IMG/VR virus record: IMGVR_UViG_2915597211_000007
Span: 4,560-68,559 of that record
DNA from: a virus
Taxonomy: Duplodnaviria > Caudoviricetes
Strand: one strand, 5' to 3'
DNA length: 64,000 nucleotides
Below, one piece after another: positions 394-54,286 of this stretch. The first letter of the stretch is position 1; each line of letters begins with the position of its first letter. The notes under the pieces are model-generated. The model saw only the letters and a list, made by a program, of their open reading frames with translations. It was not told where the DNA came from and did no database searches. Made by a program: the position numbers and the translations under genes.

Positions 394-442
394 CAAAAAA
401 ATAACGCCCACCTAACGGACGTAAAATCCGATAAGTGGGCGT
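394..442 (-). terminator. Intrinsic terminator closing the lysis operon and peptide gene
   Basis: ACGCCCAC...GTGGGCGT stem followed by TATTTTTTT on the minus strand. Confidence 0.8.
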
Positions 443-452
443 ATATATTCGA

Positions 453-614
453 TTATCCTACAAGCGATCCAGTTTCGATTGGTCCGAGGTTTCGCATTCC
501 GGTTTCAATCGGACCGTGTACGGACGCTCCCGTTTCGATAGGACCTGCATAAGCTGCTGTCGCTACTGCCATAACCACCACAAAAATTACAAATCCAAAA
601 ATGACCTTTTTCAT
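453..614 (-). CDS. Secreted signalling propeptide with three tandem GPIETG hexapeptides (53 aa)
   Basis: Manual translation MKKVIFGFVIFVVVMAVATAAYA-GPIETG-ASVH-GPIETG-MRNL-GPIETG-SLVG; AAGGAGG SD; Sec signal ending AYA; synonymous codons differ between copies. Confidence 0.9.
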   Translation of the reverse strand: MKKVIFGFVIFVVVMAVATAAYAGPIETGASVHGPIETGMRNLGPIETGSLVG

Positions 615-666
615 ACGTAAATTCCTCCTTAGTGTATTATTACAAGTGTACTGTGCGCGGAAAATA

Positions 667-948
667 TCAGACTTCGTATTTCTCCGTCTTAACTTCTGGT
701 TGCTTCACGCTATCATCCGCAGGCTTCGGACGTACGTAACTGTACGCGCCCGCTGCCGTTAATCCGACGACCGCCGTCGTAAGAATTCCGTCCTTAATCG
801 CGCCATCCGGTGCAAATACGAATAGCGCAGCGAACAACATCGCCGCCACTGGCGCAAACTTACCGGACATGCCGAGTCCTTTCGCTACTCCCGTCAATGC
901 GGCCACAATCGCAGCCAGCGTTGCAATATCGTAAGTGATCGTTTCCAT
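667..948 (-). CDS. Holin
   Basis: 93 aa, three hydrophobic segments, charged C-terminus, adjacent to the endolysin. Confidence 0.8.
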   Translation of the reverse strand: METITYDIATLAAIVAALTGVAKGLGMSGKFAPVAAMLFAALFVFAPDGAIKDGILTTAVVGLTAAGAYSYVRPKPADDSVKQPEVKTEKYEV

Positions 949-2141
949 TAGCGTTTCCCTCCGATATATTTAATCGCGTTCAATACAACGGTCAGCACGA
1001 ACCAGACCGTTGCAGATTCGTTCAGACGCGCCGACCAGTCAGACGTAATCAGACCGAGTGCTCGCGCCTCATCGTGCGCCTTCCGTTTCCACTCTTCGAT
1101 CACAGGCGGCTCCTCCTTCGGAATCTTTCGTAATCCATACGTTTTCTCTAGTCCTCCAACGATTGCGCGCGCCACCTTATCACGGTAGACGTCCGATTTG
1201 AGTAGCGCAGCCTCTTCGCGGTTCGTCATAAATCCGCATTCGCAGAGAATTGCGGTCATTTCCGATTTGCGCAGAACGTAAAAGTCCGCCTGTTTGACTC
1301 CACGATTACGCTGTCCCGTGTGCGCGATAAGCGAAGCCTGTATGTTTGCAGCAAGCTTCCGAGTCGCCTCGTCTGCGGTCGTATACACAAACGTTGTGAT
1401 CCCGTTCGCCTCGTACCAGTCGCCTGGTCCCGCCGCGTCTGCGTGAATAGAAACGTAGACATCCGCGCACCATTTATTCGCGCGGTCAGTCCGTTCACCT
1501 AACGGAACGTCCCGTCCGTCTTCGTGAACGAAAAGCACCGAAACGCCTTCGTAATCTGCGAGGAGATCACGGACACGCTTCGCAACCGCGGAGTTAAAAT
1601 GATACTCGCGCATGCTTCCGTCAGGCGTACGTTTGCCAGGCGTATCCGGTCCGTGTCCTGCGTCAATCGCTACTTTTAACGCCACTTTCCGAGTCACCTC
1701 CGCGTCATATTCGTATAGTCGATATTGCTCGATAACCTTCGTTAACTTTGCGGTATAATTTGGGTCAGTCGCGTAACCAGCCCGCGCTATCTCTGCGCAA
1801 GCCGTCCGCCAGTCTGCGCCGATAACGTTGTGGTAACGCGGTTTCAGTAGGAATTCAGAGTGGTCACGGATAGACTCGTCCCAATCGGTATATTTGCGGA
1901 AGGCTGAACGTTTTTCAGTCCGGACACCATTTACGTACTCGTCCGATACCTTTTCGTAACTGCCCGCTGGTCCTATACCTTTGATTCCGAACAGTGCGTT
2001 CGCACTGACCGCGAGTTCGGACGTACCAGACTTCGATTCTACGATTGCCTGCGCGAGTGTTAGCGATGCGGGCACGCCTGTCCGCCTGTGTTCGTCAACG
2101 GCTATTGGCGCGATTCTTGCGATGAAATCCGTAGTGCTCAT
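948..2141 (-). CDS. Endolysin: GH73 glucosaminidase plus Amidase_3
   Basis: TLAQAIVES...NALFGIKG and GYATDPNY (GH73); IDAGHG, SIHAD and ILCECGFMTN (zinc amidase). Confidence 0.92.
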   Translation of the reverse strand: MSTTDFIARIAPIAVDEHRRTGVPASLTLAQAIVESKSGTSELAVSANALFGIKGIGPAGSYEKVSDEYVNGVRTEKRSAFRKYTDWDESIRDHSEFLLKPRYHNVIGADWRTACAEIARAGYATDPNYTAKLTKVIEQYRLYEYDAEVTRKVALKVAIDAGHGPDTPGKRTPDGSMREYHFNSAVAKRVRDLLADYEGVSVLFVHEDGRDVPLGERTDRANKWCADVYVSIHADAAGPGDWYEANGITTFVYTTADEATRKLAANIQASLIAHTGQRNRGVKQADFYVLRKSEMTAILCECGFMTNREEAALLKSDVYRDKVARAIVGGLEKTYGLRKIPKEEPPVIEEWKRKAHDEARALGLITSDWSARLNESATVWFVLTVVLNAIKYIGGKR

Positions 2142-2145
2142 CGCG

Positions 2146-2337
2146 TCACCTCAGCTTCTCTTTAATTTCGCGAATCTCTCCGATAACAAGATCGTATTTT
2201 TCTGAGAATTTCTCGAGCAGCTCGTTCAGCCGCGTCTCCCTATCGCGTGACTCGCGTTTGGTCGAAATCAACAACCAAACGAAAAGGACCGCGAACGGCC
2301 CTTGCGTTAGAAAGTACTTGAGTACATCAATTTCCAT
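2146..2337 (-). CDS. bhlA: BhlA/UviB-family holin-like peptide
   Basis: MEIDVLKYFLTQGPFAVLFVWLL signature. Confidence 0.85.
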   Translation of the reverse strand: MEIDVLKYFLTQGPFAVLFVWLLISTKRESRDRETRLNELLEKFSEKYDLVIGEIREIKEKLR

Positions 2338-2341
2338 TCGT

Positions 2342-2491
2342 TTACACCGCCTCGTCAGCACAAGTAATATCGGCCAGTTGCGGAAGCTCTAGTTGTCGAA
2401 GCTGCGTCCGTACGTCCTCGCGAATGGTTTTCGGCACATCACAGATCGTTTTGTATCCGCGAACAATCAACGTTGTATAAATCGTTACCAT
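2342..2491 (-). CDS. XkdX/CD1375-like small protein
   Basis: MVTIYTTLIVRGYKTICDVPKTIREDV; probable ATG at 2491. Confidence 0.7.
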   Translation of the reverse strand: MVTIYTTLIVRGYKTICDVPKTIREDVRTQLRQLELPQLADITCADEAV

Positions 2492-2849: not shown

Positions 2850-4978
2850 CCGATCCCTCCCATTATCTTCTTGATGGCCTTTGTCGATGCGGGGTCAGCG
2901 CGAGTCAGCGTCAATTTCAGCGTTACCTTTGCGCCAGCCGGTGTCGCAGTCCCTACGAACTCATCTTCGTAAATAGTTCCGTCCCCAATCGGCACGCTCG
3001 CATTCTTCGTCATCGCCACGAAAGACTCGGCGGCATTACTCGCTACAATCGAACGCGCTGCGGCAACGGTCAGGTCGCCAGCCTCACGGTTGATCCACGT
3101 GACTATTTCCGCCGTCGTGCCGAGTGGTGGCGTGATCGTATACCGGACGACCGCCGTCTTGACTGGCGTTTGTGTTCCGGACTTTACGAACGTGAGCGTT
3201 TTTGTCTTTGCGGCACCTTTCGTATCAGTCGCGGTAAATACCACTTTGTTTGTACCGTTGGCGAGCGCAGACACAGGAACCACGTACTCGAACGTCGTAC
3301 CGGAAGGGACTCCGGCCTTTAACGGAACTGGCTCGCCACCATTGAACGCGACCGTAAGGTTAACGTTATCGTTCTCCGGGTCCGATACGGTTCCAGTGAA
3401 AACCAGCGTCTCCAATTCGGACAAGCCTGTTCGGTTCGCGTTGTATGCGTCCAGCACGATATTCGGCGGACGGTTAAGAATGACCTTGAATGAGCGTGTA
3501 TATGACGTAGAGGTTCCGCCTTGATCGTCAACCGCGTATGCATTGACGGTATACGTCGTATTCTCTGCGAGTGGTCCGGACACGTCCGTTGCGCCATCGT
3601 AGAGGCGTCCGTTTTGGAACGTCAAGACATTTGAGAACGGAATCGGTGAGACTCCGTCAGAGATTGCAGACGTGATGTTGCGGGCGGTTCCGCCATTGAT
3701 CGCGTATCTTACGGTGACTGCGTTGCCACTGTCGGGGTCGGACGCGGTGCCTGCGAGTGCGTACGTTGCGCCTTCCGTCAATGTTTGATTATCGGAAGGT
3801 GAAGTTAGCGAGAGAGTTGGCGGGTTATTTGTTTTTGGGACGAGAACAAGCGAACGGGAAGCGCCCGGTGCTGCTGAAACGGTTGTAGTAGTCATATCGC
3901 TTGATGTCTGACTTTTATTTGTGTACATGTATCTGAAAGACATCTCAAGTGCATATGAGTTACCGTAAATATCCAATATTTCTCTATAGTTTAATGGGCT
4001 TGTGCTTGAAACCTGACTAACAAAGCCATTTAGTAAAATAAACACCGTTTTATCGTGTGTTGTCGCGGTATTGGGCGGTGCGATTGTTTGTGAGGCTGTC
4101 GATGTAGTCGTGACTTGGCTAGTGTCAATCTGTTTTACATTCCTGAAACAAGTCATGTATGCAAGCCAGTTAACATTTCCGGCTGTATTGGTGAATACAG
4201 GAGGTGTTTCTGTAGCAGAAGCATATTTATAGTACACAGCGAATCTACTTCCAAACGCTACATCGTCAGCTAATTTTGTCCAACTGGAAGGTGTGGTCCC
4301 CAAGGTTCCCGATGTTGCTATGTGTGCTATTAATAAATCACCCAGTTGGTATCCTGTGGGTAGATTTAGTGTAATACTCGAGATTGAGGAAGAGTTGTTG
4401 GTTGTACCTGCCCCAACAAAATCCACTTGCTTTTTGCCTGTTGTCGGGATGGAGTAGTCGATGGTGAGGGTTGGGCGTCTCGCTTCCGTTGAAGCTTCCT
4501 TGGAGCCTACAGATCGTTGAGTATTTGTTCCGACCTCATCTATGTCTTTCAACAGAAAACCGAAGTTCGGACTGCCATTTACCCATTCTTGGACAATTGT
4601 TTTCACATCGACCTGGACAGACGCATCTGCGCTCAATGATGGGAATGATGCTTTTGGAGTTGATTCGAAAGTTGGTTGGTTATTCCAGTTTGTATTCTGA
4701 TCCCACGCACTTGTAATCTTGTGGATGCTTGTTTGTCTGGACACTGCATTTCCAACGTTATACAAATAAAGAGTGGCACTGTTAATGACCGCATTGTTTG
4801 GAATAAGGCCCAGGTCAAAAATCAGCAAGGCCCTTAATTTATCATTCAACCCAGCACTTCCATTACCCCATTGCAGGCTATCGGCGGTACCGTAAGATGA
4901 CGTTGGTGACGCTTGAACAATAAATGTATCTGAAATGGACGTGTTCAATCGTTCTAGTTTAACTACGGGCATGCGCAT
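2846..4978 (-). CDS. Tail fibre/receptor-binding protein with N-terminal DNRLRE (CBM96-like) domain and Ig-like repeats
   Basis: DTFIVQASPTSSYG...RALLIFDL..IP.NAVINSATLYLY; two N.PP-initiated Ig-like modules; position after the baseplate genes. Confidence 0.7.
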   Translation of the reverse strand: MRMPVVKLERLNTSISDTFIVQASPTSSYGTADSLQWGNGSAGLNDKLRALLIFDLGLIPNNAVINSATLYLYNVGNAVSRQTSIHKITSAWDQNTNWNNQPTFESTPKASFPSLSADASVQVDVKTIVQEWVNGSPNFGFLLKDIDEVGTNTQRSVGSKEASTEARRPTLTIDYSIPTTGKKQVDFVGAGTTNNSSSISSITLNLPTGYQLGDLLIAHIATSGTLGTTPSSWTKLADDVAFGSRFAVYYKYASATETPPVFTNTAGNVNWLAYMTCFRNVKQIDTSQVTTTSTASQTIAPPNTATTHDKTVFILLNGFVSQVSSTSPLNYREILDIYGNSYALEMSFRYMYTNKSQTSSDMTTTTVSAAPGASRSLVLVPKTNNPPTLSLTSPSDNQTLTEGATYALAGTASDPDSGNAVTVRYAINGGTARNITSAISDGVSPIPFSNVLTFQNGRLYDGATDVSGPLAENTTYTVNAYAVDDQGGTSTSYTRSFKVILNRPPNIVLDAYNANRTGLSELETLVFTGTVSDPENDNVNLTVAFNGGEPVPLKAGVPSGTTFEYVVPVSALANGTNKVVFTATDTKGAAKTKTLTFVKSGTQTPVKTAVVRYTITPPLGTTAEIVTWINREAGDLTVAAARSIVASNAAESFVAMTKNASVPIGDGTIYEDEFVGTATPAGAKVTLKLTLTRADPASTKAIKKIMGGIG

Positions 4979-26229: not shown

Positions 26230-26322
26230 TTACCAGCCGGGACCGCCGTCAGCGAATGCGCTGGATGCTACGGACAGAGCCGCGACGATTGCGAAGAATG
26301 CTGTGATAGCGAATTTTTTCAT
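26230..26322 (-). CDS. Secreted propeptide releasing the hexapeptide DGGPGW (30 aa)
   Basis: Manual translation MKKFAITAFFAIVAALSVASSAFA-DGGPGW; GGAGG SD; Sec signal ending AFA. Confidence 0.82.
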   Translation of the reverse strand: MKKFAITAFFAIVAALSVASSAFADGGPGW

Positions 26323-26455
26323 ACGTAATTACCTCCGTTTGGTCCGCGTGTGCGGCCGATTATTTTTGCGTTGTGTATGCGCGCCTCGTCCGGACGGTAC
26401 CGGAGTCATCGGCGAAGGTCTCATAACGTATAGATACGAGATTGCGCTAAAGTCG

Positions 26456-27016: not shown

Positions 27017-27800
27017 CGGATGCCTCCGTTTCCATTTCCGCGAGGATCGACTCCAAGCGGATGTCTGCGATTTCTACGTATTTTGATTCCGTTTCGAATC
27101 CGATGAAATTTCGGCCAGTTCGGACGGCTGCGACTGCAGTAGTACCGGAGCCCATGCAATTGTCGAGTACGATGTCACCTTCGTTCGTGTATGTGCGGAT
27201 GAGGTACTCGAAAAGGGCTACGGGTTTTTGTGTCGGGTGCAACGCCTCTCTTTGTTTGTCAGACGCAAATACTTGAACACTACGAGGAAATCGCTCTGTG
27301 CTATCATACGAGCTGAGTTCGTAATCATTGTAATTGGATGACTTGGCACACTTTCGTCTGTGCACTGCTGTACTGACCTTCCTCACATGTCCATATGTTT
27401 TCTGAGGATTATACGTGGGCAATCCCTTGTAAAAGACCAGTACATTCTCATGGGCTTTCATTGGCATTTTATTCGCGTTCAGATGGCCAGTTGGTGTTGT
27501 CTTTTCCCATATCCACTCATAGCGAAGCATTTCTAAATTGCTGCAGCCTAAAACCTTATCAAATGGCGTTTGCGCAGTTAGCACAATTGCTCCATTTCCT
27601 TTAATGATTCTCTTGTATTGATCCCATAGAGGCTGTAGCGGAATTATGGCGTCCCACTTGTTCTGCGTTGTCCCATATGGTAGGTCGCATAGAATCATGT
27701 CTACGCTCCCATTCGGAATCATCCGCATCCCCTCGATACAATCACGCTGATATATCCGGTTTAACTCGATCTCTCCGAGTAGTTTCTTTTCCGTCATCAA
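27009..27800 (-). CDS. DNA amino-methyltransferase (N4-C/N6-A, beta class)
   Basis: ILCDLPYG, HPTQKP and VLDNCMGSGTT motifs. Confidence 0.9.
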   Translation of the reverse strand: MMTEKKLLGEIELNRIYQRDCIEGMRMIPNGSVDMILCDLPYGTTQNKWDAIIPLQPLWDQYKRIIKGNGAIVLTAQTPFDKVLGCSNLEMLRYEWIWEKTTPTGHLNANKMPMKAHENVLVFYKGLPTYNPQKTYGHVRKVSTAVHRRKCAKSSNYNDYELSSYDSTERFPRSVQVFASDKQREALHPTQKPVALFEYLIRTYTNEGDIVLDNCMGSGTTAVAAVRTGRNFIGFETESKYVEIADIRLESILAEMETEASDE

Positions 27801-35235: not shown

Positions 35236-37560
35236 TTATCTCACTGGACAGCTATTTCCCACGCATTCATTTGACGAGTCAACCGCGTTGTCTTCCGCAA
35301 CGATCGCGCCGCCAACGACATCCCACGGTTTAGCCTTGATCCGCGCAACCATCTCGTCGTATTTCTCCTTCGTAATCGCCTCGTATGGCATCTGCGGATA
35401 CGTGTCGGTCGCGTACGGCAATAGTGACGTCGACTTGATTACGGTCTTGTACCGGTCGAGGATAACCGTAATCTCATCGATCACACGGTCCTCGTCGCGT
35501 TGGTCAACCTTGAGCTCCGGATTGCCGAATTTATCGAGAAGCACCGTCCCATCCGCGAAATATACTGGCTTCGGCTGCGCCTTCTTGAACGAAAGTGTCG
35601 CTGACACTGCGTTATCCGACCAGTACGTTGCGAGGAGCGCTTGGAGTGCGGCTTGTTCACGGAGGGGCACGTCGCCTGCTGACTGGAATTGCGTGTGCTC
35701 CGCGGTCGGGGCCTTCACCGGAAACTCCACGACGACCGTATTGTAGTTGTACACGTACGATCCGTCCGGATTAAATCCCTGGATCGCTGGCTCAACGTAA
35801 TATCCGCATTCGAGCAGGATGGGAACGAGCGGAGCCTGCGCCGACATTCGAACGCGACGGATCATGTACGGTGCCCAGTGGTAATGTTGCCCTGGCGAAA
35901 CGCCCATGAGGAGCGAAATAGTTCCGCTGGGCTTCACGGTCGTCACCTTGATCGACGGATTCGCGCCGAGTTGCTCCGCGTGATCAGCGTTCGTATCGCG
36001 GACTGCACCGTATAGCTCATCGAGAGCCTCCGTCACGTCTTCGTTAAATACCGGATTGCCCTCGTCATCAAATCCGAGGATTGCGCGCTCACCGAATCGC
36101 ATCAGCACCCAATCGGTAATTCCCGTAATGCCTACGCCAAGGCGTCGATGTCGGTATACTACGTCGCGAGTAACGGCCCATTCATACGGTCGGAATGTGA
36201 TCCGGTAGGCATAACGCGTTGCCAGGTACGCCACTTCGTCGTATAGCGTATCGCCTTCTATACCCTTCGCTATGAAATCGTGGATTCGCGGCAAGTTGAT
36301 CTCGAACAGGTTGCACGGCGACCCGTTGGGAAGCGTTATTTCCCCGCAAGGATTAAACACTTCGACCTCCCCGTCAATGTCCGCCTTGAATCCGTCGATG
36401 ATCCGTCCGAAGTTGCGCGATAACTCGATCGATACGTAGCCTGGTTCGCCATTATAGTAAATGTTGACGGCCATATCGCGGAGTGTTTCGCGATCAGTGT
36501 CCATTCCGATATCTACGGAGTTGTTCGATGCCCAGCGCCATTGGCTCGCGACCTTATTGCGTTCCAGCGCGTAGTTCTTCGACTCTACGAAATCTTTATC
36601 CGCGTTGTCTCCGATTAGGATTAGCGCTGTTCTGCGGACGTTACCGGCAACGACACAGCATCCGATATTTTGGATCACGTCGCCCCATTCCGTCGGCGTT
36701 ACGTAGTCTCCGACACGACCGTTGAGGATCGTGTTCACTTTCGTTAGCATGTCGACGAGTGGCGCTGGGCCTGACGCAACGCCTCCGAATCCAACAATAT
36801 CGGAACCTCGCGGACGGATATCGGATAGGTCGATCACGATGTCCGTAACGCCTTCGTAATGTGCGTCGATTACTTTCGCGAGCGCCTCCGCCCAGCCTTC
36901 TCGCGCATCCTCGACACGTAAGTAGCTGTAACCGTTCCTTTCCGCGAACTCTTTTTCGTCGTTACATGTTAGCAGCACTCCCATCGACTCGAGTTCGGCG
37001 TCATAATCAGCGTGGTATCCGGTGCAAGAGAACGATATGGTCAGTTTGTTATTTACTTTCGGAATCTGCGCAACGTACTTCTGCTGTACATTCACGCCGA
37101 CGCCTCCGCCTTTCATCGCTTGATCGAACGTAAACACCGGAGCGAACGAAACTTTCGGTTGCCCACCGCCAGGAACGTATTCCTGCGGTCGCATCGACAC
37201 TCCCCAGCAGTTATTTTCGGCATCCCCGACCTTCTCCGCGTAGTCCGTTCCACTCATCCAAAGACCGCGGCCTGGCGGAGTCATGACGAGATTGAACGCT
37301 AGGTGATAGAACCGCTCCATTTCCGCAGTCAGTTCCGCAATCTTCTCATCGGTCAACCGCCCGAGTTCTGCCAGTCTCTTCGCCTCGATCCGAAAGTTAC
37401 CCTCGGTAAATCGCCGCACCGTTTCGTCCCATCGTTCGAGCGTGCCGTCCGGTTTCTTGCGGGCGTAAGTCCGGAGATAGACGATGTAACCGAGCCCGTC
37501 GAATCCCCATTTCGGTTGTTTACCGCGATACTGCTGCAAAAATTGCTCGGACAGTTTCAA
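35236..37560 (-). CDS. nrdJ: Class II (B12-dependent) ribonucleotide reductase, monomeric type
   Basis: PPGRGLW, NNCW, NPCGEI and TTVKPSGT motifs; C-terminal CVGNSCPVR. Confidence 0.93.
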   Translation of the reverse strand: MKLSEQFLQQYRGKQPKWGFDGLGYIVYLRTYARKKPDGTLERWDETVRRFTEGNFRIEAKRLAELGRLTDEKIAELTAEMERFYHLAFNLVMTPPGRGLWMSGTDYAEKVGDAENNCWGVSMRPQEYVPGGGQPKVSFAPVFTFDQAMKGGGVGVNVQQKYVAQIPKVNNKLTISFSCTGYHADYDAELESMGVLLTCNDEKEFAERNGYSYLRVEDAREGWAEALAKVIDAHYEGVTDIVIDLSDIRPRGSDIVGFGGVASGPAPLVDMLTKVNTILNGRVGDYVTPTEWGDVIQNIGCCVVAGNVRRTALILIGDNADKDFVESKNYALERNKVASQWRWASNNSVDIGMDTDRETLRDMAVNIYYNGEPGYVSIELSRNFGRIIDGFKADIDGEVEVFNPCGEITLPNGSPCNLFEINLPRIHDFIAKGIEGDTLYDEVAYLATRYAYRITFRPYEWAVTRDVVYRHRRLGVGITGITDWVLMRFGERAILGFDDEGNPVFNEDVTEALDELYGAVRDTNADHAEQLGANPSIKVTTVKPSGTISLLMGVSPGQHYHWAPYMIRRVRMSAQAPLVPILLECGYYVEPAIQGFNPDGSYVYNYNTVVVEFPVKAPTAEHTQFQSAGDVPLREQAALQALLATYWSDNAVSATLSFKKAQPKPVYFADGTVLLDKFGNPELKVDQRDEDRVIDEITVILDRYKTVIKSTSLLPYATDTYPQMPYEAITKEKYDEMVARIKAKPWDVVGGAIVAEDNAVDSSNECVGNSCPVR

Positions 37561-46605: not shown

Positions 46606-47400
46606 TTAAATCGCGATTAATGCGGTTGCTACGTGTTTCTTTTGCTCGACCAAACTCGCCAGTTCTGCGTTAATTTCGTTCAAGTGCGTATCGAGTGCGT
46701 TAATCCGCGCCTGCAACGCCATTTTCTTCGCCAGACTCCGCGTGGAAACAAGCGCCAGCACCCGTTCAGCACGTTCGTACTCTAGCGCGGCTTTCTGTAA
46801 CGGGAGCGTTTTGTTGATTGCGCTGATTTTCCGTTCAAGTTTACGCATCTCCTTCGCTACGACATCGCGCACCTTATCCGAAATGATCGGCGGAAACTTT
46901 TTCGTGCTGTAATAAACCGTCCGGATCGTCTTCCGGTCAGTATCAACGCCAATCGCGATTCCTTTCGTTGCGTATACGTGTCCTTCGTTCGTGAGACTCC
47001 GTATATTTTCGACAACTACGTTGGACTCGCGGAACCGATCGTAAATCCATTGCGCAGCTCGTTCGCGTGGAACTCCGAAACGCTCAACGGCGCGGTCAAT
47101 CGCGTGCTTACGGATTGTGATTCCGTCAATTGCGACGTTCCCTTCGTTATCTGCGGTTTCCAGCGCACGTGTTTCGGTATCCTGCGCTACGTTAACGCGT
47201 CGGACACGTACAATCTTCGTTCGCTCTCCGGGACGCTCCGTATAGAAAAGAAAATTCTCGTACTGATACGCGTTACTTGATACGCGCACCGCCTTACGGA
47301 CATGTATATTGATCCATGAGTGCGCACGAGCTCGGTCGATTCCGGTTAGAGCGATAACATCCGCTTGAGCTTGCGGAGTTATGCGAAGTTTGTCAATCAT
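46606..47400 (-). CDS. Hypothetical protein with C-terminal coiled coil
   Basis: IRKHAIDRAVERF motif; no firm family. Confidence 0.7.
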   Translation of the reverse strand: MIDKLRITPQAQADVIALTGIDRARAHSWINIHVRKAVRVSSNAYQYENFLFYTERPGERTKIVRVRRVNVAQDTETRALETADNEGNVAIDGITIRKHAIDRAVERFGVPRERAAQWIYDRFRESNVVVENIRSLTNEGHVYATKGIAIGVDTDRKTIRTVYYSTKKFPPIISDKVRDVVAKEMRKLERKISAINKTLPLQKAALEYERAERVLALVSTRSLAKKMALQARINALDTHLNEINAELASLVEQKKHVATALIAI

Positions 47401-47567
47401 GCGAGTCTCACCGCCTTAACCGTCATCCGACGAGACAAGTAATCGGCTGCGTCTTCGTCCGGTTGGAATCCGTCGTCGTATTCGTGGATGGTTCGGCCAG
47501 TTGCGTTATATTCGTATGGAAAGCGTGTATACTTCGTTTGGTTATTGCGTACAATATCGTATGGCAT
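47397..47567 (-). CDS. Small hypothetical protein (56 aa)
   Basis: MPYDIVRNNQTKYTRFPYEYN...; GAGGTG SD; ATGA-coupled to the next gene. Confidence 0.6.
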   Translation of the reverse strand: MPYDIVRNNQTKYTRFPYEYNATGRTIHEYDDGFQPDEDAADYLSRRMTVKAVRLA

Positions 47568-47796
47568 CGTTATCACCTCGTGTAGTTTGCATAAATTTCG
47601 TATAATTTCCGTTGGTTAGCGCAACAATGTCCTTGACAAGGCAGTCCCAAAATTAGTAATATGTGATCGAAGTTATCTGACTTATAAAACGTCTTTTACT
47701 TAGACTATTTATTGTATTAAACTAATGACTTCGGATATAATTGTAGCGAGGTCGAGACTATGACGTATTGCCTAAACGCCATAGCCCGATCGTACA

Positions 47797-48414
47797 TCAT
47801 ACCGTGTAATAATTGCGTTGGTCCCCGAAACGATTGGCGTCGTATCTACGTGACAAATAGCGCAATTTATTCTTCACGGTTTTGTCAGACAATCCGAGCG
47901 ATTTGGCGATCGCGACGAAAGGTTGTCCGGCAAGAAACAATTTGACAACTTTACATGTGATGTCATCGGTTCCGGTGACGAGAAAAGAGAGTAGTTCCCG
48001 CTGCTCTCTTTTCTTTTGTACCTCCACTACCATACCTTCGACATTTCCAGTGAGAGAGAGACTCTCGTCCTCGACTTGAGATATTGGCGTATCTCCATCG
48101 TCAGGCGCGATATCTAATGTGCAATCTTCTCGAACTCTTGCTCGATTACGTCTCAAGTCCCTGATCCTGTTTCGAATACTTCTAGTGAGGAAGTTTTCAA
48201 AGTTCCCGATTGACGGGTCAAACTTATCGAGCGCATCCATTAATGTCTGATCGTAAACAGCCTGTACATCATGTTGTCCAGTGCGTGTAAACCGCTCGTC
48301 ATTTCGTCGTTTGGCTGGCGTCCATCCAACGCTGACTATTCGGTATATTTCCTCGAAAACCTCTTCGTTTCGTGAAGCCTGATAACTGACGACTAACTCG
48401 TTTATCCCGTTCAC
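47797..48414 (-). CDS. Phage RNA polymerase sigma factor (sigma-70 family, compact)
   Basis: Region 2 DALDKFDPSIGNFENFLTRSIRNRIRD; region 4 FVAIAKSLGLSDKTVKNKL. Confidence 0.88.
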   Translation of the reverse strand: MNGINELVVSYQASRNEEVFEEIYRIVSVGWTPAKRRNDERFTRTGQHDVQAVYDQTLMDALDKFDPSIGNFENFLTRSIRNRIRDLRRNRARVREDCTLDIAPDDGDTPISQVEDESLSLTGNVEGMVVEVQKKREQRELLSFLVTGTDDITCKVVKLFLAGQPFVAIAKSLGLSDKTVKNKLRYLSRRYDANRFGDQRNYYTV

Positions 48415-48433
48415 TTTTCGTCCTCCTTTGTCC

Positions 48434-48471
48434 TACACTTAGTTATACGCCGCAAATCAGTAGCCTCGGAA
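48434..48471 (-). promoter_or_regulatory. Conserved promoter-like motif, copy 1 (upstream of the sigma gene)
   Basis: TTCCGAGGCT-N10-GGCGTATAACTAAGTGTA; near-identical copy at 62659-62697. Confidence 0.65.
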
Positions 48472-48499
48472 AAGATTCGGAAGATTTTTCATAAAATAG

Positions 48500-48538
48500 T
48501 TTGGATGAACAGATTAAATCATTTTTAACACATCCAAA
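48500..48538. promoter_or_regulatory. Long-spaced inverted repeat, candidate RRNPP receptor operator
   Basis: TTTGGATG-N23-CATCCAAA between the propeptide terminator and the sigma gene. Confidence 0.5.
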
Positions 48539-48713
48539 ATATACGACTACCGATCCGGCATGATTAAATACTAACATTTAGGAATTTAGAAATCAGTACT
48601 GTATTGTCGTAATAATTTTGATTTTTTATTGCAAAAAATAACTTTTTCCCGATAATTCGACACTAACAACCTTATAACGACACAAATTAGATGGATACTG
48701 TTGTCTTTTAAAC

Positions 48714-48743
48714 AAAAAAAACCTGCGAAACTAAGTTCGCAGG
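48714..48743 (-). terminator. Intrinsic terminator after the receptor-propeptide operon
   Basis: CCTGCGAA-N6-TTCGCAGG-TTTTTTTT. Confidence 0.88.
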
Positions 48744-48786
48744 GAAGCTCCACACACTTTCAATTATTAGTGTTAACCACTTCGAA

Positions 48787-48906
48787 TTACATTAGAGAAT
48801 TTTCAACGGCAGCTTGTCCAGTTTCGATCGGTCCTGTTGGTTCGAGGATTATAGGGACAGATACTAAAAGTACTATGGCAACAAAAATTGTGAGTAATTT
48901 TTTCAC
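48787..48906 (-). CDS. Cognate secreted propeptide (AimP-like) containing GPIETG (39 aa)
   Basis: Manual translation MKKLLTIFVAIVLLVSVPIILEPT-GPIETG-QAAVENSLM; GGAGG SD and GTG start 17 nt after the receptor stop. Confidence 0.9.
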   Translation of the reverse strand: MKKLLTIFVAIVLLVSVPIILEPTGPIETGQAAVENSLM

Positions 48907-48922
48907 AAAAACGCACCTCCGT

Positions 48923-50227
48923 TCAATTATAGTAGCTCTCTAATAACTCGATTTCTGCTTTTTCTTCGTCAGTAACAAGGTGCCCGTACTTTGTTAGAAC
49001 TTTGATAAATAGAAGTGCCACGGTCACTAACTCATCATTTAATTGCTTGCCTCGTAATAATCTACAGCTTTCTAAAAGGTTAGTAATGATTTCTCGCGGA
49101 TCACCTCCAGTCGACAGTAGTATCGCAGCGACGTTTCTTTTGTGAAGTGCAACTTCATTCATAAATCTTATCGGGCACTCTTCGGATTGATTTAATTTCT
49201 CTACTAGTCGATTAGTTTCCTCTACTAGAAGTTGGGCTTTAACAATATCTCCACTTTGATATTCCATGAAAGCAAAGTCTGTTAAAATATTTAATCTCCC
49301 TAAATCATCTTTTGGCATTTCAGAAAGAACTAATTCCCAATTATCTCTTGCTTGGGAAAATTCTTTACTCAACCAAAGCGCTCTTGCCATACTAGCCTTA
49401 CTGTCTATCTGAATAGCACTCCCCAATTCCGAAAGCTCGTAACACTCCTGATACATTTCAAGTGCTTTATTGAAATTTTTCAACTGGCAATATATATGCC
49501 CAAGAGTGTTATGTAATCTCCATTTATCGTTTGAACTTGCGCCTGCACAGATTTTCCTCGCGGCTGCTCCAATTTCAACGCCCTTTGTATAGTTCCTTGT
49601 AAAATAACAACACATCATAAACTCAAGGAGCACCGTAAAACGTTGATTTAAATTTTTAAACTCATATCTTGATGTTATTTTCTTAAAGAGAGTTAATGCA
49701 ATTTGAAAGTTACGTTCATCTCGAGAAAATTTGTAAAACAAATCCAATTCTTCGAATACTTCTTTTTTTGATATTAAATCTAGTTGTAATGCTACAAAAT
49801 CGACCATCTTTTCGTGTCCCACGGTTTCGTTTATTGCAACCATTATCTTTAGTAGTAGTAACATTGATTTCATGTAGTAAAACTCTTTAGTCTTAGTATT
49901 AGTTGTTCGCTTAGCCAGTCGAAGAATTTTATAGATGACTAGTCTAGTGGAGTCATAATCTCTGATACTGAAAAAATGTAGAGCAAGTTCAAACAGTTCA
50001 TGCTTGTCATCTTGTGCTCGGAGGTACAAATCTCGAGACTCGAGAATGCTGAATTTGAGAATATCGGATAACAGAATTAGTGTTTCTGTTTTGGGAACGG
50101 TGTAGTTACGCTCAATAGATGCGTAATGACTTTTATTCATTCGTCTAGTGATTTCCACATCTTCTTGTTTAAGTCGCTTTATAACCCTTTTGTTCCGGAG
50201 AAAAAAACCTAGTGTTAAGGTAGTCAC
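48923..50227 (-). CDS. RRNPP-family peptide receptor (XRE-HTH plus TPR; arbitrium AimR-like role)
   Basis: N-terminal LGFFLRNKR...LKQEDV...HYASIERNYTVP HTH; TPR helices (LHNTLGHIYCQLKNFNKALEMYQECYE); adjacent propeptide; probable GTG at 50227 (track 50296). Confidence 0.88.
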   Translation of the reverse strand: MTTLTLGFFLRNKRVIKRLKQEDVEITRRMNKSHYASIERNYTVPKTETLILLSDILKFSILESRDLYLRAQDDKHELFELALHFFSIRDYDSTRLVIYKILRLAKRTTNTKTKEFYYMKSMLLLLKIMVAINETVGHEKMVDFVALQLDLISKKEVFEELDLFYKFSRDERNFQIALTLFKKITSRYEFKNLNQRFTVLLEFMMCCYFTRNYTKGVEIGAAARKICAGASSNDKWRLHNTLGHIYCQLKNFNKALEMYQECYELSELGSAIQIDSKASMARALWLSKEFSQARDNWELVLSEMPKDDLGRLNILTDFAFMEYQSGDIVKAQLLVEETNRLVEKLNQSEECPIRFMNEVALHKRNVAAILLSTGGDPREIITNLLESCRLLRGKQLNDELVTVALLFIKVLTKYGHLVTDEEKAEIELLESYYN

Positions 50228-50270
50228 TAACAATTTCCCCCATTCAGTATATCTTGGTGTCAATATCATA

Positions 50271-50288
50271 ATTCCTATATTTAGGAAT
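50271..50288. promoter_or_regulatory. Palindromic operator candidate in the divergent receptor/cro intergenic region
   Basis: ATTCCTA-TATT-TAGGAAT; ATTCCTATATTT repeated at 50343; ATTTAGGAAT also at 48576. Confidence 0.5.
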
Positions 50289-50412
50289 GTCAACATTAAT
50301 GAATGTGCATATTCAAAAATATAAAAATTTATACAAATTGGTATTCCTATATTTCCAAACAGGAATTTCTAAGATATAATTAAACTTAGTCCTACTATAG
50401 GAGGTTCTTATA

Positions 50413-50625
50413 ATGATCTTAAAGGTTAGGTTAAAAGAGGTATTGGAAGAACGTGGGCTGACACAGAAAGAGTTGTCTGCACTCACAGGTCTAAGGGAAA
50501 ACACAATATCAGAGCTGTCCAATAATATTCGTCAATCAATTAATGTAAAATACATTGGTATAATCGCAAAGAAATTGAACATTACCAATGTAAATGAAAT
50601 CTTATACTTTGAAGAAGACAGATAG
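50413..50625 (+). CDS. Cro/C1-type HTH regulator
   Basis: LKEVLEERGLTQKELSALTGLRENTISEL; divergent from the receptor; upstream TATAAT and GGAGG. Confidence 0.9.
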   Translation: MILKVRLKEVLEERGLTQKELSALTGLRENTISELSNNIRQSINVKYIGIIAKKLNITNVNEILYFEEDR

Positions 50626-51624
50626 TCTCACATGTCTAGCTTTATTTATATAAGCATCAACCAGTATTTTATCCTCGATGTCGTTCGGGTCCTTGTATCG
50701 CATCGGATACCCTGCGACCCTCACGTTCATATATGGCGCAAGCAACTCGATCGCCTTCCGCTTAAACTTCTGTCCCGCAGCGTCGTGATCCGCCATTATT
50801 ACGATTTCCTCTAGCGGACTCTTCCGGATAATCTCTGCTTTCTCTTCGGTGAACGCCGAGCTTCCGTTCGCAATCGCGTAACCTCCCGCCGTCATCACGT
50901 ACATTGCATCAATTTCCGCCTCCATGATAACCGCGCGGCGCACATTCTCTCGGTAGATCATGTTCATCCCGTAAATCATTTCGCGGATTGGCCGTCCGCC
51001 CTTCACGTACCAAAACGTTTTTTCTGCTATCCTCCGGAACTTTACGTTTCCTAGCGTCCCATCCGGTAAAAACCACGGAATGGTTATCGCACGCGACCGG
51101 CTACAATATCCCACACCCATCTTCCTCTGCACTTCCGGACTAATACCGCGCGACTCTAGGTACGGATGCCGTCGGTCGTACTCGCGTAAGATGTCCGCGT
51201 TAAGCGCCTGCCTACAGCGCTCAAGGCGGAGTGTATTCGAGAGGTCTAGCGTTAAGGCTTCTGGATCAGCTACGTAATCGCCGCCGTACTTGCAGTAAAG
51301 ATATTCGCGAGTCTCTTCCGTTGTCTCTTGGCGTAGAAACGAAAGTAGGCTAACGATGCCACCACGTGCGAATTTCTGGTCAGAAGAACCAGGGTCACCC
51401 CACGAACCGGCTTTTGCCGTTGGCGTATCCGTGAGATAGACGTAGAATGACGGAGTTCGGTCGAATCGGAACGGGCTGGCTGCGGTGAGTTTATCGTGGG
51501 CCCAGGTCGCGCGTTCCCAAATAAAATTTTCGAGTTCCTCTCTGACATCCACGTTCAAAGAATCCACATAACCACTCCATTCCCAACAATTTGAAATGTT
51601 AAACACTTTTTGATTAAACTGCAA
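50602..51624 (-). CDS. DNA primase (TOPRIM)
   Basis: YLESRGIS, VKFRRI, IMEAEIDAM and IMADHDAAG motifs; real start probably the GTG near 51568. Confidence 0.88.
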   Translation of the reverse strand: MQFNQKVFNISNCWEWSGYVDSLNVDVREELENFIWERATWAHDKLTAASPFRFDRTPSFYVYLTDTPTAKAGSWGDPGSSDQKFARGGIVSLLSFLRQETTEETREYLYCKYGGDYVADPEALTLDLSNTLRLERCRQALNADILREYDRRHPYLESRGISPEVQRKMGVGYCSRSRAITIPWFLPDGTLGNVKFRRIAEKTFWYVKGGRPIREMIYGMNMIYRENVRRAVIMEAEIDAMYVMTAGGYAIANGSSAFTEEKAEIIRKSPLEEIVIMADHDAAGQKFKRKAIELLAPYMNVRVAGYPMRYKDPNDIEDKILVDAYINKARHVRLSVFFKV

Positions 51625-52951
51625 ATTGTTCAGATGTCGCTATACCACTTGGCAACTCTTTCAGGACTCCGTGATCTAGCAGCGCGATTAACTCAATGAC
51701 CGTATCCTCCGCACCGTTCCTCCCTTTCTCTATGCCTAATAGCGCCTGCCCGTCCTGTTCTACACTATCGAACGCGAATAAAACGGTAGCAATATCGAGG
51801 AGCCGTTTCGTTGTTTTCACTTGATCGCGCGTAGGCAACTTTAATTCCCGCTGTCCCTCGTCCCGCGATTTTTTCTCGACGGTTGCCTGCACCGCGTATA
51901 TACCGACAACATCGTGCTCTCCAACGATCCGCTCGAACGTAGACGCCGCCTGTTCCGCCGCCCCTCCCGCAGTCTTATTCGCGTTGTTCCCGTACACATC
52001 CGTCAGTCCGTAAAACGGGTCGACGACTACCGCGTCAATGTCCGGTCGCTGCGCTAGTTCGCGTTCAAGGTCCTTCAATGTCCGTGTAAGCTCTCGGTCA
52101 CCTTTCGCCTGCAAAATGAGTTCTCCCGGATAGTATTCGTTTATGACGCCCAGCATTTCGAGGAAATAGCGTTCGGTATCCTCGTCAAGTTTTCCGGAAA
52201 GGATCGCTCGATTCGGTAGGCCCACCTTTCGCCCCAACTCGTCGACCGCAACCTCATCTCGCGCCGTCATAATCGATATCAGACGCGATACCCACAGATA
52301 CGCCTTCAACTCGTACGACTTGACGAGAACTTTCGCTCCCTGGCGTAATAGCTCGTCAATCAACGCGATTATCAAATAGGACTTGCCGCGCCCCGATTCC
52401 GCCATCACGCCGTAAATATCTCCGGAATACAATCCGCCTATCGCATCGTTAAGCGCATTAAATGGCGTCTTCCACAGTTTGAACGACTTGCCCTGCTTGC
52501 GCTTGAGGTACTCGTCGCGCATCTCCGTACGCAAATCGTCTAGTGTTCGTCCGATTCGCGTTTGTACAACGGTCCCCGCCGCAATCCCATCGAGCTTCCC
52601 GCGCACCCACTCCGCAAACTCTTCCGGCTTCATTGCACTAAACTTCTCGCCGAACTCGCGGCTGGTAAAGAACGCATGCTGACGGAACTTGGCGGAGTTC
52701 TCCTTCACCTTGCGGGCGAGCCATTCGAACGAGTCCGCCACCTCCGGCATGTACGTAAATCCCTTGATCTCGGCCGCGACCGTTCGATAGTCCGGAGCCC
52801 GTCCGTTCGCTTCCGCATATTCGCGGATAAACCGGAGCGCCTTCCGTTCGGCTTCCGTACCCATGTGCGATTCGTCGATGCCATAGCGCGTGAGGGCGGA
52901 CGGGTCGTTTGTGTCGATTACTTTCGATAATAGCGATTCTCCGTATGCCAT
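51614..52951 (-). CDS. DnaB-like replicative helicase
   Basis: GDIYGVMAESGRGKS Walker A; VVVDP; IEKGRNG. Confidence 0.9.
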   Translation of the reverse strand: MAYGESLLSKVIDTNDPSALTRYGIDESHMGTEAERKALRFIREYAEANGRAPDYRTVAAEIKGFTYMPEVADSFEWLARKVKENSAKFRQHAFFTSREFGEKFSAMKPEEFAEWVRGKLDGIAAGTVVQTRIGRTLDDLRTEMRDEYLKRKQGKSFKLWKTPFNALNDAIGGLYSGDIYGVMAESGRGKSYLIIALIDELLRQGAKVLVKSYELKAYLWVSRLISIMTARDEVAVDELGRKVGLPNRAILSGKLDEDTERYFLEMLGVINEYYPGELILQAKGDRELTRTLKDLERELAQRPDIDAVVVDPFYGLTDVYGNNANKTAGGAAEQAASTFERIVGEHDVVGIYAVQATVEKKSRDEGQRELKLPTRDQVKTTKRLLDIATVLFAFDSVEQDGQALLGIEKGRNGAEDTVIELIALLDHGVLKELPSGIATSEQFAV

Positions 52952-52973
52952 TCGTGATCACCTCCGCTGATAG

Positions 52974-52985
52974 GAACGTTTGTTC
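52974..52985. promoter_or_regulatory. LexA/DinR SOS box before the helicase gene
   Basis: GAAC-GTTT-GTTC between the -10 box and the SD. Confidence 0.7.
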
Positions 52986-52993
52986 TTATTTCG

Positions 52994-53023
52994 ATTGTAC
53001 AAGATATTTGTATAAACGTGCAA
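52994..53023 (-). promoter_or_regulatory. SigA-type promoter of the helicase-primase operon
   Basis: TTGCAC-N18-TACAAT on the minus strand. Confidence 0.6.
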
Positions 53024-53110
53024 CGGTACAAATTACTCATATCCTTTAATCTGATCATATCATCCTTTTTCGCGTTCACTTTTAATAAACTACAACTGAC
53101 TCACTATTGA

Positions 53111-53147
53111 GTTCTCATAATTCACTAATCAGATCAGTTATGAGAAC
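53111..53147. repeat. Perfect 10-bp inverted repeat with 17-nt spacer
   Basis: GTTCTCATAA-N17-TTATGAGAAC. Confidence 0.8.
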
Positions 53148-53214
53148 AAAAGGGGAAAATACGGCACTTTTCCAACAGTAAAATTATGCTTGACAACTTT
53201 TCCGTTTATTTTCA

Positions 53215-53337
53215 CTACATTTTTCTCAGCACATTCCACGCGATGAAATGTCGACCCCATATTCGTTCGGTCTTCGCTTCCAGCCGCGCCGCCCTCCGTA
53301 ATTGCCACGCGTGGTACCACGTTTGTATTCGTCTCAT
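53215..53337 (-). CDS. Small Arg/Trp-rich protein (40 aa)
   Basis: MRRIQTWYHAWQLRRAARLEAKTERIWGRHFIAWNVLRKM; GGAGG SD. Confidence 0.45.
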   Translation of the reverse strand: MRRIQTWYHAWQLRRAARLEAKTERIWGRHFIAWNVLRKM

Positions 53338-53500
53338 TCGCTGAGCCTCCATCATAACACGGGTTTTTACGCCTACTGCCGCACCCTGTCCGTTATATCC
53401 CGATATGACCGTTACTGACCCGACATGCCCGTTAAATACGCTTAATTTTCGCGAAAATAGCGCTTGACACGTTTTCTATCTCCGCATCCCCCTTTTCTCG

Positions 53501-54286
53501 TCATTGCTTACGCATTCCACGCTTGCTCTCGCCTACAAACGGAACCACCGCGCATTGATCCCGCACGCGATCCTCCAGCCGCTTATCGAACACGTCCGCG
53601 AGCTCTTCGATTGTGACGTTCGATGTGTACACGGTAGGCATTCGGTTTGTTACGCGGTGGTTGATCACCGCATGCAGGTCGCCTCTGAGCGCATCGCTCG
53701 CGTCACGTACGCCGATATCATCCATCACGACGAATGGCGTTGTCTTTGCGTATTCCATCGCGCGATAGTACGCCTCTGACGCTGGCTCTGCGATATGGTC
53801 CGGAACACGCGGTCGATTGAACGCGTTAAATTGCGTCTGCCACTCGTTTACGTCCAGGAAATATACCGGTCGGTTCAGCGGTCGCCTATTCCGCTGAAGC
53901 GATCCGATATAATGACGGATGAGATACGTATTAGCAATCGCGGCTGCGGTCGTAGTTTTTCCGGTGCCGGTCGCGAGTGAATACAGGTATAGCGATTTGA
54001 TACGTTGCTCCCGATCGTCCGAAAATTGGCGTTCGAACGTCACCACGTACGCCTCTACAATCGCGTACGCCTTCGCTTGGTCAGCGCGCGCTACCGAGTT
54101 CGCGACCGTTACTTGGCGGTAATCGGTCGGGATGGCTGCGGCTGCTACCCGTCCTCCTGCGCCAGATGCGCCGTGGAGCGCAATAAAATGTGGGCAGAGA
54201 CGGGTGCATACGGTCGGGTCCGAGGACGTACGGCAGGGTTCGCGTAGGATGCAGGATGCCGCGTTGGTGCGTGTGGTTACGGTCAA
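53501..54286 (-). CDS. DnaC/IstB-like helicase-loader ATPase
   Basis: TGTGKTT, VMDDIG and HRVTNRMPTVYTSN motifs; N-terminal Cys cluster. Confidence 0.9.
   Translation of the reverse strand: MTVTTRTNAASCILREPCRTSSDPTVCTRLCPHFIALHGASGAGGRVAAAAIPTDYRQVTVANSVARADQAKAYAIVEAYVVTFERQFSDDREQRIKSLYLYSLATGTGKTTTAAAIANTYLIRHYIGSLQRNRRPLNRPVYFLDVNEWQTQFNAFNRPRVPDHIAEPASEAYYRAMEYAKTTPFVVMDDIGVRDASDALRGDLHAVINHRVTNRMPTVYTSNVTIEELADVFDKRLEDRVRDQCAVVPFVGESKRGMRKQ

Follow-up and report, generated by a model that had tools for sequence, protein, structure and literature searches.

A 53-residue, predicted secreted propeptide encoded at one end of a prophage carries three copies of the hexapeptide GPIETG, which the same phage encodes once more beside an HTH-TPR receptor ~48.3 kb away. 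Sequence evidence, namely the anatomy of the gene and parallel unlinked genes in related phages, gives good support to reading this satellite as a second pheromone gene, in line with the original prediction that it is a second, unlinked precursor of the receptor-linked hexapeptide. The fuller proposal, in which the satellite closes the late lysis operon and feeds that receptor (receptor A), is one that we narrowly favor. The stretch of DNA that we analyzed (the window, 64,000 nucleotides) comprises positions 4560–68559 of the 68.6-kb IMG/VR provirus IMGVR_UViG_2915597211_000007, which is part of a 5.28-Mb contig in assembly GCA_014526365.1 and whose related elements are Paenibacillus prophages. 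Nearly all genes of the window are on the minus strand.

The satellite gene encodes three copies of a conserved hexapeptide

The elements of the satellite gene are, in window coordinates:

453–614 (minus strand), satellite propeptide gene, 53 amino acids, a called gene in the NCBI assembly
546–614 (minus strand), Sec signal peptide of the satellite
528–545, 498–515 and 468–485 (minus strand), the three GPIETG copies, each followed by a 4-residue spacer
624–630 (minus strand), ribosome-binding site AAGGAGG, 9 nt 5′ of the ATG, in the same context as in the DGGPGW gene described below

In the signal peptide, MKK forms the n-region, the hydrophobic core spans 14 residues and AYA occupies positions −3 to −1; the first GPIETG stands directly behind AYA. 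The copies recur with a period of 10 residues, and the 4-residue spacers that follow them (ASVH, MRNL and SLVG) are unrelated to one another. The original prediction had described just such a 53-residue ORF, with a Sec signal ending in AYA and a threefold GPIETG, and we found it preceded by a strong ribosome-binding site; it had been described as missed by the ORF track, but one existing annotation, that of assembly GCA_014526365.1, does call the gene. Among 5.8 billion proteins the 53-residue product had no relative but itself, and the DNA pattern of two GPIETG copies at a 10-codon period had no match in IMG/VR. Three metagenome matches to that pattern were rejected as unrelated, being low-complexity GPIET runs within long ORFs.

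A six-frame scan of the window found one occurrence of GPIETG besides those in the satellite, at 48817–48834 on the minus strand, which is within the receptor-adjacent propeptide ~48 kb away that had been predicted to contain it. Pairwise comparison of the four copies revealed one to four nucleotide differences per pair, all of them synonymous, with no replacement difference, and this bore out the earlier claim that the codons had diverged synonymously and the spacers differ. The residues flanking the four copies all differ (T, A, H and L before, Q, A, M and S after). Because all differences among the copies are synonymous, while each copy has its own flanking residues and the spacers have nothing in common, the hexapeptide itself is the conserved unit, and the GPIETG hexapeptides have been kept under purifying selection. 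When a secreted tail of ~15 residues is set against the ~137,000 six-frame positions, ~0.03 hexapeptide matches are expected by chance, and three in tandem behind a signal-peptidase site would be far rarer still, which excludes a chance origin.

The receptor-linked module

The single-copy GPIETG belongs to a compact module with the following features:

50413–50625 (plus strand), Cro/C1-type HTH gene, divergent from the receptor
48923–50227 (minus strand), HTH-TPR receptor of family A, 434 amino acids; the ORF is open up to 50296
48787–48906 (minus strand), receptor-linked propeptide, 39 amino acids, with one internal GPIETG
48715–48743 (minus strand), terminator 3′ of the linked propeptide gene (dG −22.1, z −3.1)
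47797–48414 (minus strand), sigma-70/ECF-type sigma factor (Pfam Sigma70_r2; TIGR02937 above cut-off)

Homologues of receptor A begin near residue 24–28 of the long ORF. The linked propeptide ORF starts 16 nt downstream of the receptor and has an N-terminal hydrophobic leader; its single GPIETG is followed by nine further residues and is not preceded by a good signal-peptidase site. Some 370 AT-rich bases separate the terminator of this gene from the sigma-factor gene, which is likely the regulated output of the receptor.

Several lines of evidence place receptor A, whose N-terminal HTH is of the XRE type, among the RRNPP-type receptors. In Pfam, TPR_12 and TPR_2 scored above cut-off and HTH_3 weakly, below cut-off (E 0.0036), and HTH_3 matches are present in the homologues of the receptor. 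A family-A profile matched PlcR in one stretch spanning positions 2–255 (E 5e-13). The AF2 model is all-helical, with an HTH and a TPR superhelix (pLDDT 91), and its best matches in a VIA structural search included RapI (Z 21.8), Rap of pLS20 (Z 20.6), Rap of phi105 (Z 20.1), AimR (Z 16.3) and NprR (Z 15.7), with generic TPR proteins intermixed. The VIA search was more informative than a Foldseek search against the PDB, which returned mostly generic TPR proteins, with PlcR at rank 43. It is the combination of HTH and TPR, predicted fold, structural matches and profile match to PlcR that identifies the receptor as RRNPP-type. RRNPP(A) systems are recognized by a cytoplasmic receptor with a TPR superhelix of ~5–9 repeats, an N-terminal HTH, an adjacent small gene for a secreted propeptide and a mature peptide that alters receptor activity by binding in the TPR groove, and the module of receptor A has a TPR superhelix, an N-terminal HTH and an adjacent propeptide gene. 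No named family in Pfam, PHROG or NCBIfam matched receptor A beyond generic TPR and HTH; a word search returned the protein itself alone, and IMG/VR held no match. Exhaustive HMMER searching recovered ~25 full-length relatives, all of them distant, none more than 28% identical. The family-A profile found no member at E 1e-25 in 93 genomes of one GTDB Paenibacillus genus, a search that ran without a positive control and is not evidence of absence.

The satellite is the last gene of the lysis operon

The satellite follows the lysis genes on the same strand, in this arrangement:

2146–2361 (minus strand), BhlA-type holin-like protein
948–2141 (minus strand), endolysin with glucosaminidase and amidase_3 domains
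667–948 (minus strand), holin, 93 amino acids (phrog_1299 holin, E 2.8e-14; 91% identical in G001, the closest phage found)
615–666 (minus strand), holin–peptide spacer, 52 nt, unstructured (dG −3.2, z +1.5), with no terminator
456–669 (minus strand), inserted cassette of ~214 nt, absent from G001
395–442 (minus strand), intrinsic terminator of the lysis operon, a hairpin with a U-run, with a homologue 3′ of the G001 holin

The terminator beyond the peptide gene is strong (dG −26.9 kcal/mol, z −6.6; none of 200 shuffles was equally stable), and both this terminator and the lack of one in the 52 nt 3′ of the holin gene are as originally predicted. In G001 the stop codon of the holin stands directly before the homologous terminator, with no gene between, so the cassette of the window phage is a clean indel relative to G001, with the stop codon of the holin on one side and the ancestral terminator of the operon on the other. 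Because the satellite is within the transcription unit and no terminator precedes it, it would be co-transcribed with the late lysis genes. Late, lysis-coupled expression is what this operon anatomy suggests, and a role as a lysis-coupled amplifier of the signal is plausible but unproven; that the signal would report completed lytic cycles, as had also been proposed, is a conjecture whose basis is the same anatomy.

In the mechanism that we propose, the operon would be read in the order BhlA-like protein, endolysin, holin, peptide and terminator, with read-through from the holin gene into the satellite during lytic growth. The product would leave the cell by the Sec pathway, and cleavage by signal peptidase after AYA would directly free the N terminus of the first GPIETG. 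The proline at its position 2 would tend to halt further aminopeptidase trimming. The second and third copies would need cuts on both sides, within flanking residues that are unrelated, and extracellular proteases would release them as they do internal Phr pheromones. One satellite polypeptide could in this way yield up to three signals, compared with one from the linked gene, and the satellite may even be the main source of signal because the linked gene lacks a good signal-peptidase site. Imported GPIETG would then bind the HTH-TPR receptor encoded at 48923–50227, which in turn would regulate the sigma-factor gene next to it and thereby the decision for lytic development as against lysogeny or induction. 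The time of transcription, the processing, the binding and the regulatory output are all steps that we infer.

The same locus can be read differently, as a moron with a weak promoter of its own from which lysogens would secrete GPIETG continuously, pushing incoming kin phages to lysogeny or restraining prophage induction where lysogens are dense. The location would suit a moron, since beyond the operon terminator come a YolD-like gene and then the end of the prophage, and a prophage-end site beside a YolD-like gene is a typical moron position; the satellite is, moreover, an independent insertion relative to G001. Inspection by eye also found TGTAATAAT at 636–644, which resembles an extended −10 element and possibly leaves room for expression of the satellite in lysogens or otherwise outside the late program. 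Against this reading, the accompanying −35 is poor, and a promoter scan reported no promoter on the satellite strand in the spacer at 615–666. The cassette also came without a terminator and is embedded in the transcription unit of the lysis genes, so that late read-through would be hard to avoid. We therefore regard continuous secretion by lysogens as unlikely to be the explanation of the gene, and the two modes of expression are in any case compatible with each other.

Past the YolD-like gene, to the left of the window (L002:3344–3871, plus strand, in G000 coordinates), we noted a C-terminal fragment of a tyrosine recombinase accompanied by several unrelated ORFs. This region probably represents what is left of a different element at the attachment site, which the provirus call took in.

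Some related phages also encode putative signal peptides away from the receptor

G001 (IMG/VR UViG 2851188095), whose genome is ~80–85% identical to that of the window phage, has neither receptor A nor the GPIETG cassette. A block of ~3.2–3.3 kb containing the Cro-like gene, receptor, propeptide and sigma factor has been exchanged between the two phages (window 47459–50680 versus G001 50298–53598, on L010). The site of the G001 module is between the primase gene and the gene equivalent to window 46606–47400, and the module there encodes receptor B, which is remotely related to receptor A, a sigma factor, and a 39-residue propeptide whose last six residues are DGGPGW. In two phages that elsewhere are 80–85% identical, the sigma factors share only 32% identity, and on this comparison receptor and sigma factor seem to be transferred, and to evolve, as a pair. 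In several other Paenibacillus prophages, an insert of ~2.3 kb is found between the primase and sigma-factor genes. It encodes peptides resembling AgrD, with an amphipathic N terminus and a charged tail containing P-E-I-P-x-E-L (L029:3858–3983, L035:3827–3964, L062:3342–3467, L065:3361–3498 and L069:3327–3464), and may thus represent a different, agr-type communication module at the same site.

G001 has its own unlinked peptide gene, 23 kb from the module, encoding 30 residues that comprise a signal peptide ending in AFA, then DGGPGW, then stop. Its DGGPGW and that of the linked gene differ by five synonymous changes and no replacements. The expectation that in relatives the unlinked peptide would co-vary with the linked one was borne out here, in that the linked DGGPGW is matched by an unlinked DGGPGW gene while the GPIETG cassette is absent. 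Taking the window phage and G001 together, an unlinked precursor that tracks the linked peptide occurs twice, with two peptides and two receptors. For GPIETG itself, the co-variation amounts to one presence/absence comparison plus analogies, because neither the 53-residue gene nor receptor A has close relatives.

The window phage carries this second kind of peptide gene as well:

26230–26322 (minus strand), orphan DGGPGW mini-gene, 30 amino acids, with a signal peptide ending in AFA, then DGGPGW and stop

It is 90% identical in DNA to the G001 copy, which is above the identity of the flanking sequence, and we found no family-B receptor in the window phage. Two further phages, G104 and G105, have the same DGGPGW gene in the same slot, and searches of both with permissive thresholds and positive controls found neither receptor family. 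Some phages of the clade thus apparently emit a signal that they do not themselves sense.

A related arrangement is found in G003 (IMGVR_UViG_2545824688_000002), whose family-A receptor (L018:3453–4772) has no adjacent peptide gene. In the syntenic DGGPGW slot, identified by an upstream flank shared with G104 and a similar ribosome-binding site, G003 has the following ORF:

35942–36001 of G003 (minus strand), leaderless ORF, 19 amino acids, with two copies of GPFDPP that show five synonymous and no replacement differences

This ORF may be the pheromone gene of a system that has no linked version, and its leaderless product might be released only through lysis itself. Another G003 candidate, a 25-residue ORF at 27370–27447, was rejected as a peptide gene; it falls outside the syntenic slot, on the 3′ side of the large-terminase gene. 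The slot lies upstream of the packaging genes; four phages have the leader-bearing DGGPGW gene there, and G003 has the leaderless GPFDPP ORF. Since the unlinked genes of G001 and G003 are near the packaging genes and outside the lysis operon, a position in the lysis operon is not a general feature of such genes. The small peptide genes nevertheless share a near-identical start context, consisting of GGAGG, ~8 nt containing ACGT, and ATGAAA (window 612–632 and 26320–26345; G003 ~36000–36020), which suggests that the satellite and the slot genes are related cassettes.

Repetition of the putative pheromone was also seen within receptor-linked genes. The receptor-A homologue P0004, encoded in a prophage region, has a linked propeptide with two copies of NNGETG (L094:11320–11457), which end in ETG as GPIETG does; P0007, a second such homologue, has a linked propeptide with GPYEPN and GPWEPN; and for P0005, a third, the propeptide ends in DAGGW. 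The layout with a receptor-adjacent propeptide is therefore found in P0004, P0005 and P0007 as in the window phage. In G002, which belongs to family B, the linked gene (L016:4200–4358) has NVGEHG twice, the first copy immediately behind the signal-peptidase site and the second at the C terminus. The repeats within one linked gene (NVGEHG in G002, NNGETG in P0004) differ only synonymously. A search of the whole phage for a second copy of the linked peptide found none in G002 or G004. Overall, in six of the eight systems counted (the window phage, G001, G002, G003, G004, P0004, P0005 and P0007) a putative pheromone or near-repeat is encoded more than once, in three of them by means of a gene away from the receptor.

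These relatives bear on what the satellite peptide might do. If it had the same motif but another job, acting as a modulator rather than as an amplifier of dose, it could serve as a reservoir that is processed slowly, compete for oligopeptide import or for the processing proteases, or signal to receptors of other phages or of the host. The window phage and the two receptor-less phages, all encoding DGGPGW with no matching receptor, indicate that signal genes of this clade are not always self-sensing, and cross-talk between phages has been demonstrated for arbitrium (PMC13220667). In the satellite, however, each of the three repeats preserves exactly the hexapeptide cognate to the receptor of this phage, and the first copy lies right behind the signal-peptidase site, a design that fits production of an active signal best, and we consider a modulator role decidedly improbable. 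That the ORF is non-functional, whether as a decaying duplicate or as an inconsequential repeat, could appeal to its being a database singleton but is scarcely credible for a gene with a strong ribosome-binding site, a canonical signal peptide, an intact frame, and nearly saturated synonymous sites with zero replacements over three repeats and the linked copy, in a pattern that recurs in G001, G003, G002 and P0004.

A broader reading, which we offer tentatively and think rather doubtful, is that this clade generally keeps pheromone genes off their receptors, using both the slot and late cassettes, and that the unsensed signals serve as warfare. If true, the emitters of DGGPGW that have no receptor B (the window phage, G104 and G105) would push rivals with receptor B into the wrong lysis–lysogeny decision, and a phage would boost its own private signal at lysis by adding cassettes such as the triple GPIETG to its late operon.

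Comparison with known systems

The satellite of the window phage, together with the same arrangement in related phages, indicates that phage signal genes need not adjoin their receptor. RRNPP and arbitrium systems have been defined and searched for as adjacent receptor–propeptide pairs (RRNPP_detector, PMC10075063), so unlinked precursor genes would be invisible to such adjacency-based searches. In the literature that we searched, we found no described precedent for a multi-copy precursor gene located far from its receptor, in a late operon of a phage, and no relevant occurrence of GPIETG, DGGPGW or NVGEHG. If output is indeed split between an early linked gene and a late multi-copy one, the signal would encode more than a count of infections, for example productive lytic cycles, and models of the evolution of phage communication would change. 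The receptor-less carriers of DGGPGW, for their part, offer natural cases in which cheating, eavesdropping and jamming among phages could be tested; phage cross-talk has so far been shown for arbitrium peptides only (PMC13220667).

Repeats of a pheromone within a gene are known, in receptor-adjacent genes (PMC11343458, PMC9765709). Like the satellite, the tandem Phr propeptides of phi105 and phi3T contain identical or near-identical pheromone copies in one precursor (PMC11343458), and in phi105 Phr the identical internal repeats are processed by extracellular proteases and are active (PMC11343458). Those repeats, however, are in the receptor-adjacent phr gene, whereas the satellite is 48 kb from its receptor and under other transcriptional control. 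Several propeptide genes per receptor have been described for some Rap elements only and are absent in other RRNPPA subfamilies (PMC9765709). The window system resembles these elements in having more than one gene for the pheromone, which may raise the signal dose, and differs in having an HTH-type receptor and in the location of the extra gene, far off in a late operon of a phage. The Alo system (AloR–AloP; PMC7425212) shares with it a Paenibacillus host, receptors with HTH and TPR, six-residue mature peptides in at least some cases and, as proposed here, peptide control of an adjacent gene; Alo systems are chromosomal adjacent pairs, and the likeness is one of architecture and host genus.

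In overall design there are parallels with arbitrium (AimR–AimP–AimX) of the SPbeta-group Bacillus phages, in which, as here, a phage HTH-TPR receptor is followed immediately by a small gene for a secreted propeptide, then by a terminator and a downstream regulatory gene, within the early or regulatory region, with a putative six-residue signal. There are also differences. Receptor A has no match to the AimR family in Pfam, PHROG or NCBIfam, and Rap proteins are structurally closer to it, the match to phAimR (Z 16.3, rmsd 16) ranking below those to Rap and to generic TPR proteins. The putative mature peptide is internal, whereas that of AimP is formed by the C-terminal six residues; where arbitrium has aimX, there is a sigma-factor gene; and the window phage has an additional, unlinked multi-copy precursor gene in its lysis operon. 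With a receptor outside the AimR family and a peptide that is not C-terminal, the window system may be likened to arbitrium by analogy only.
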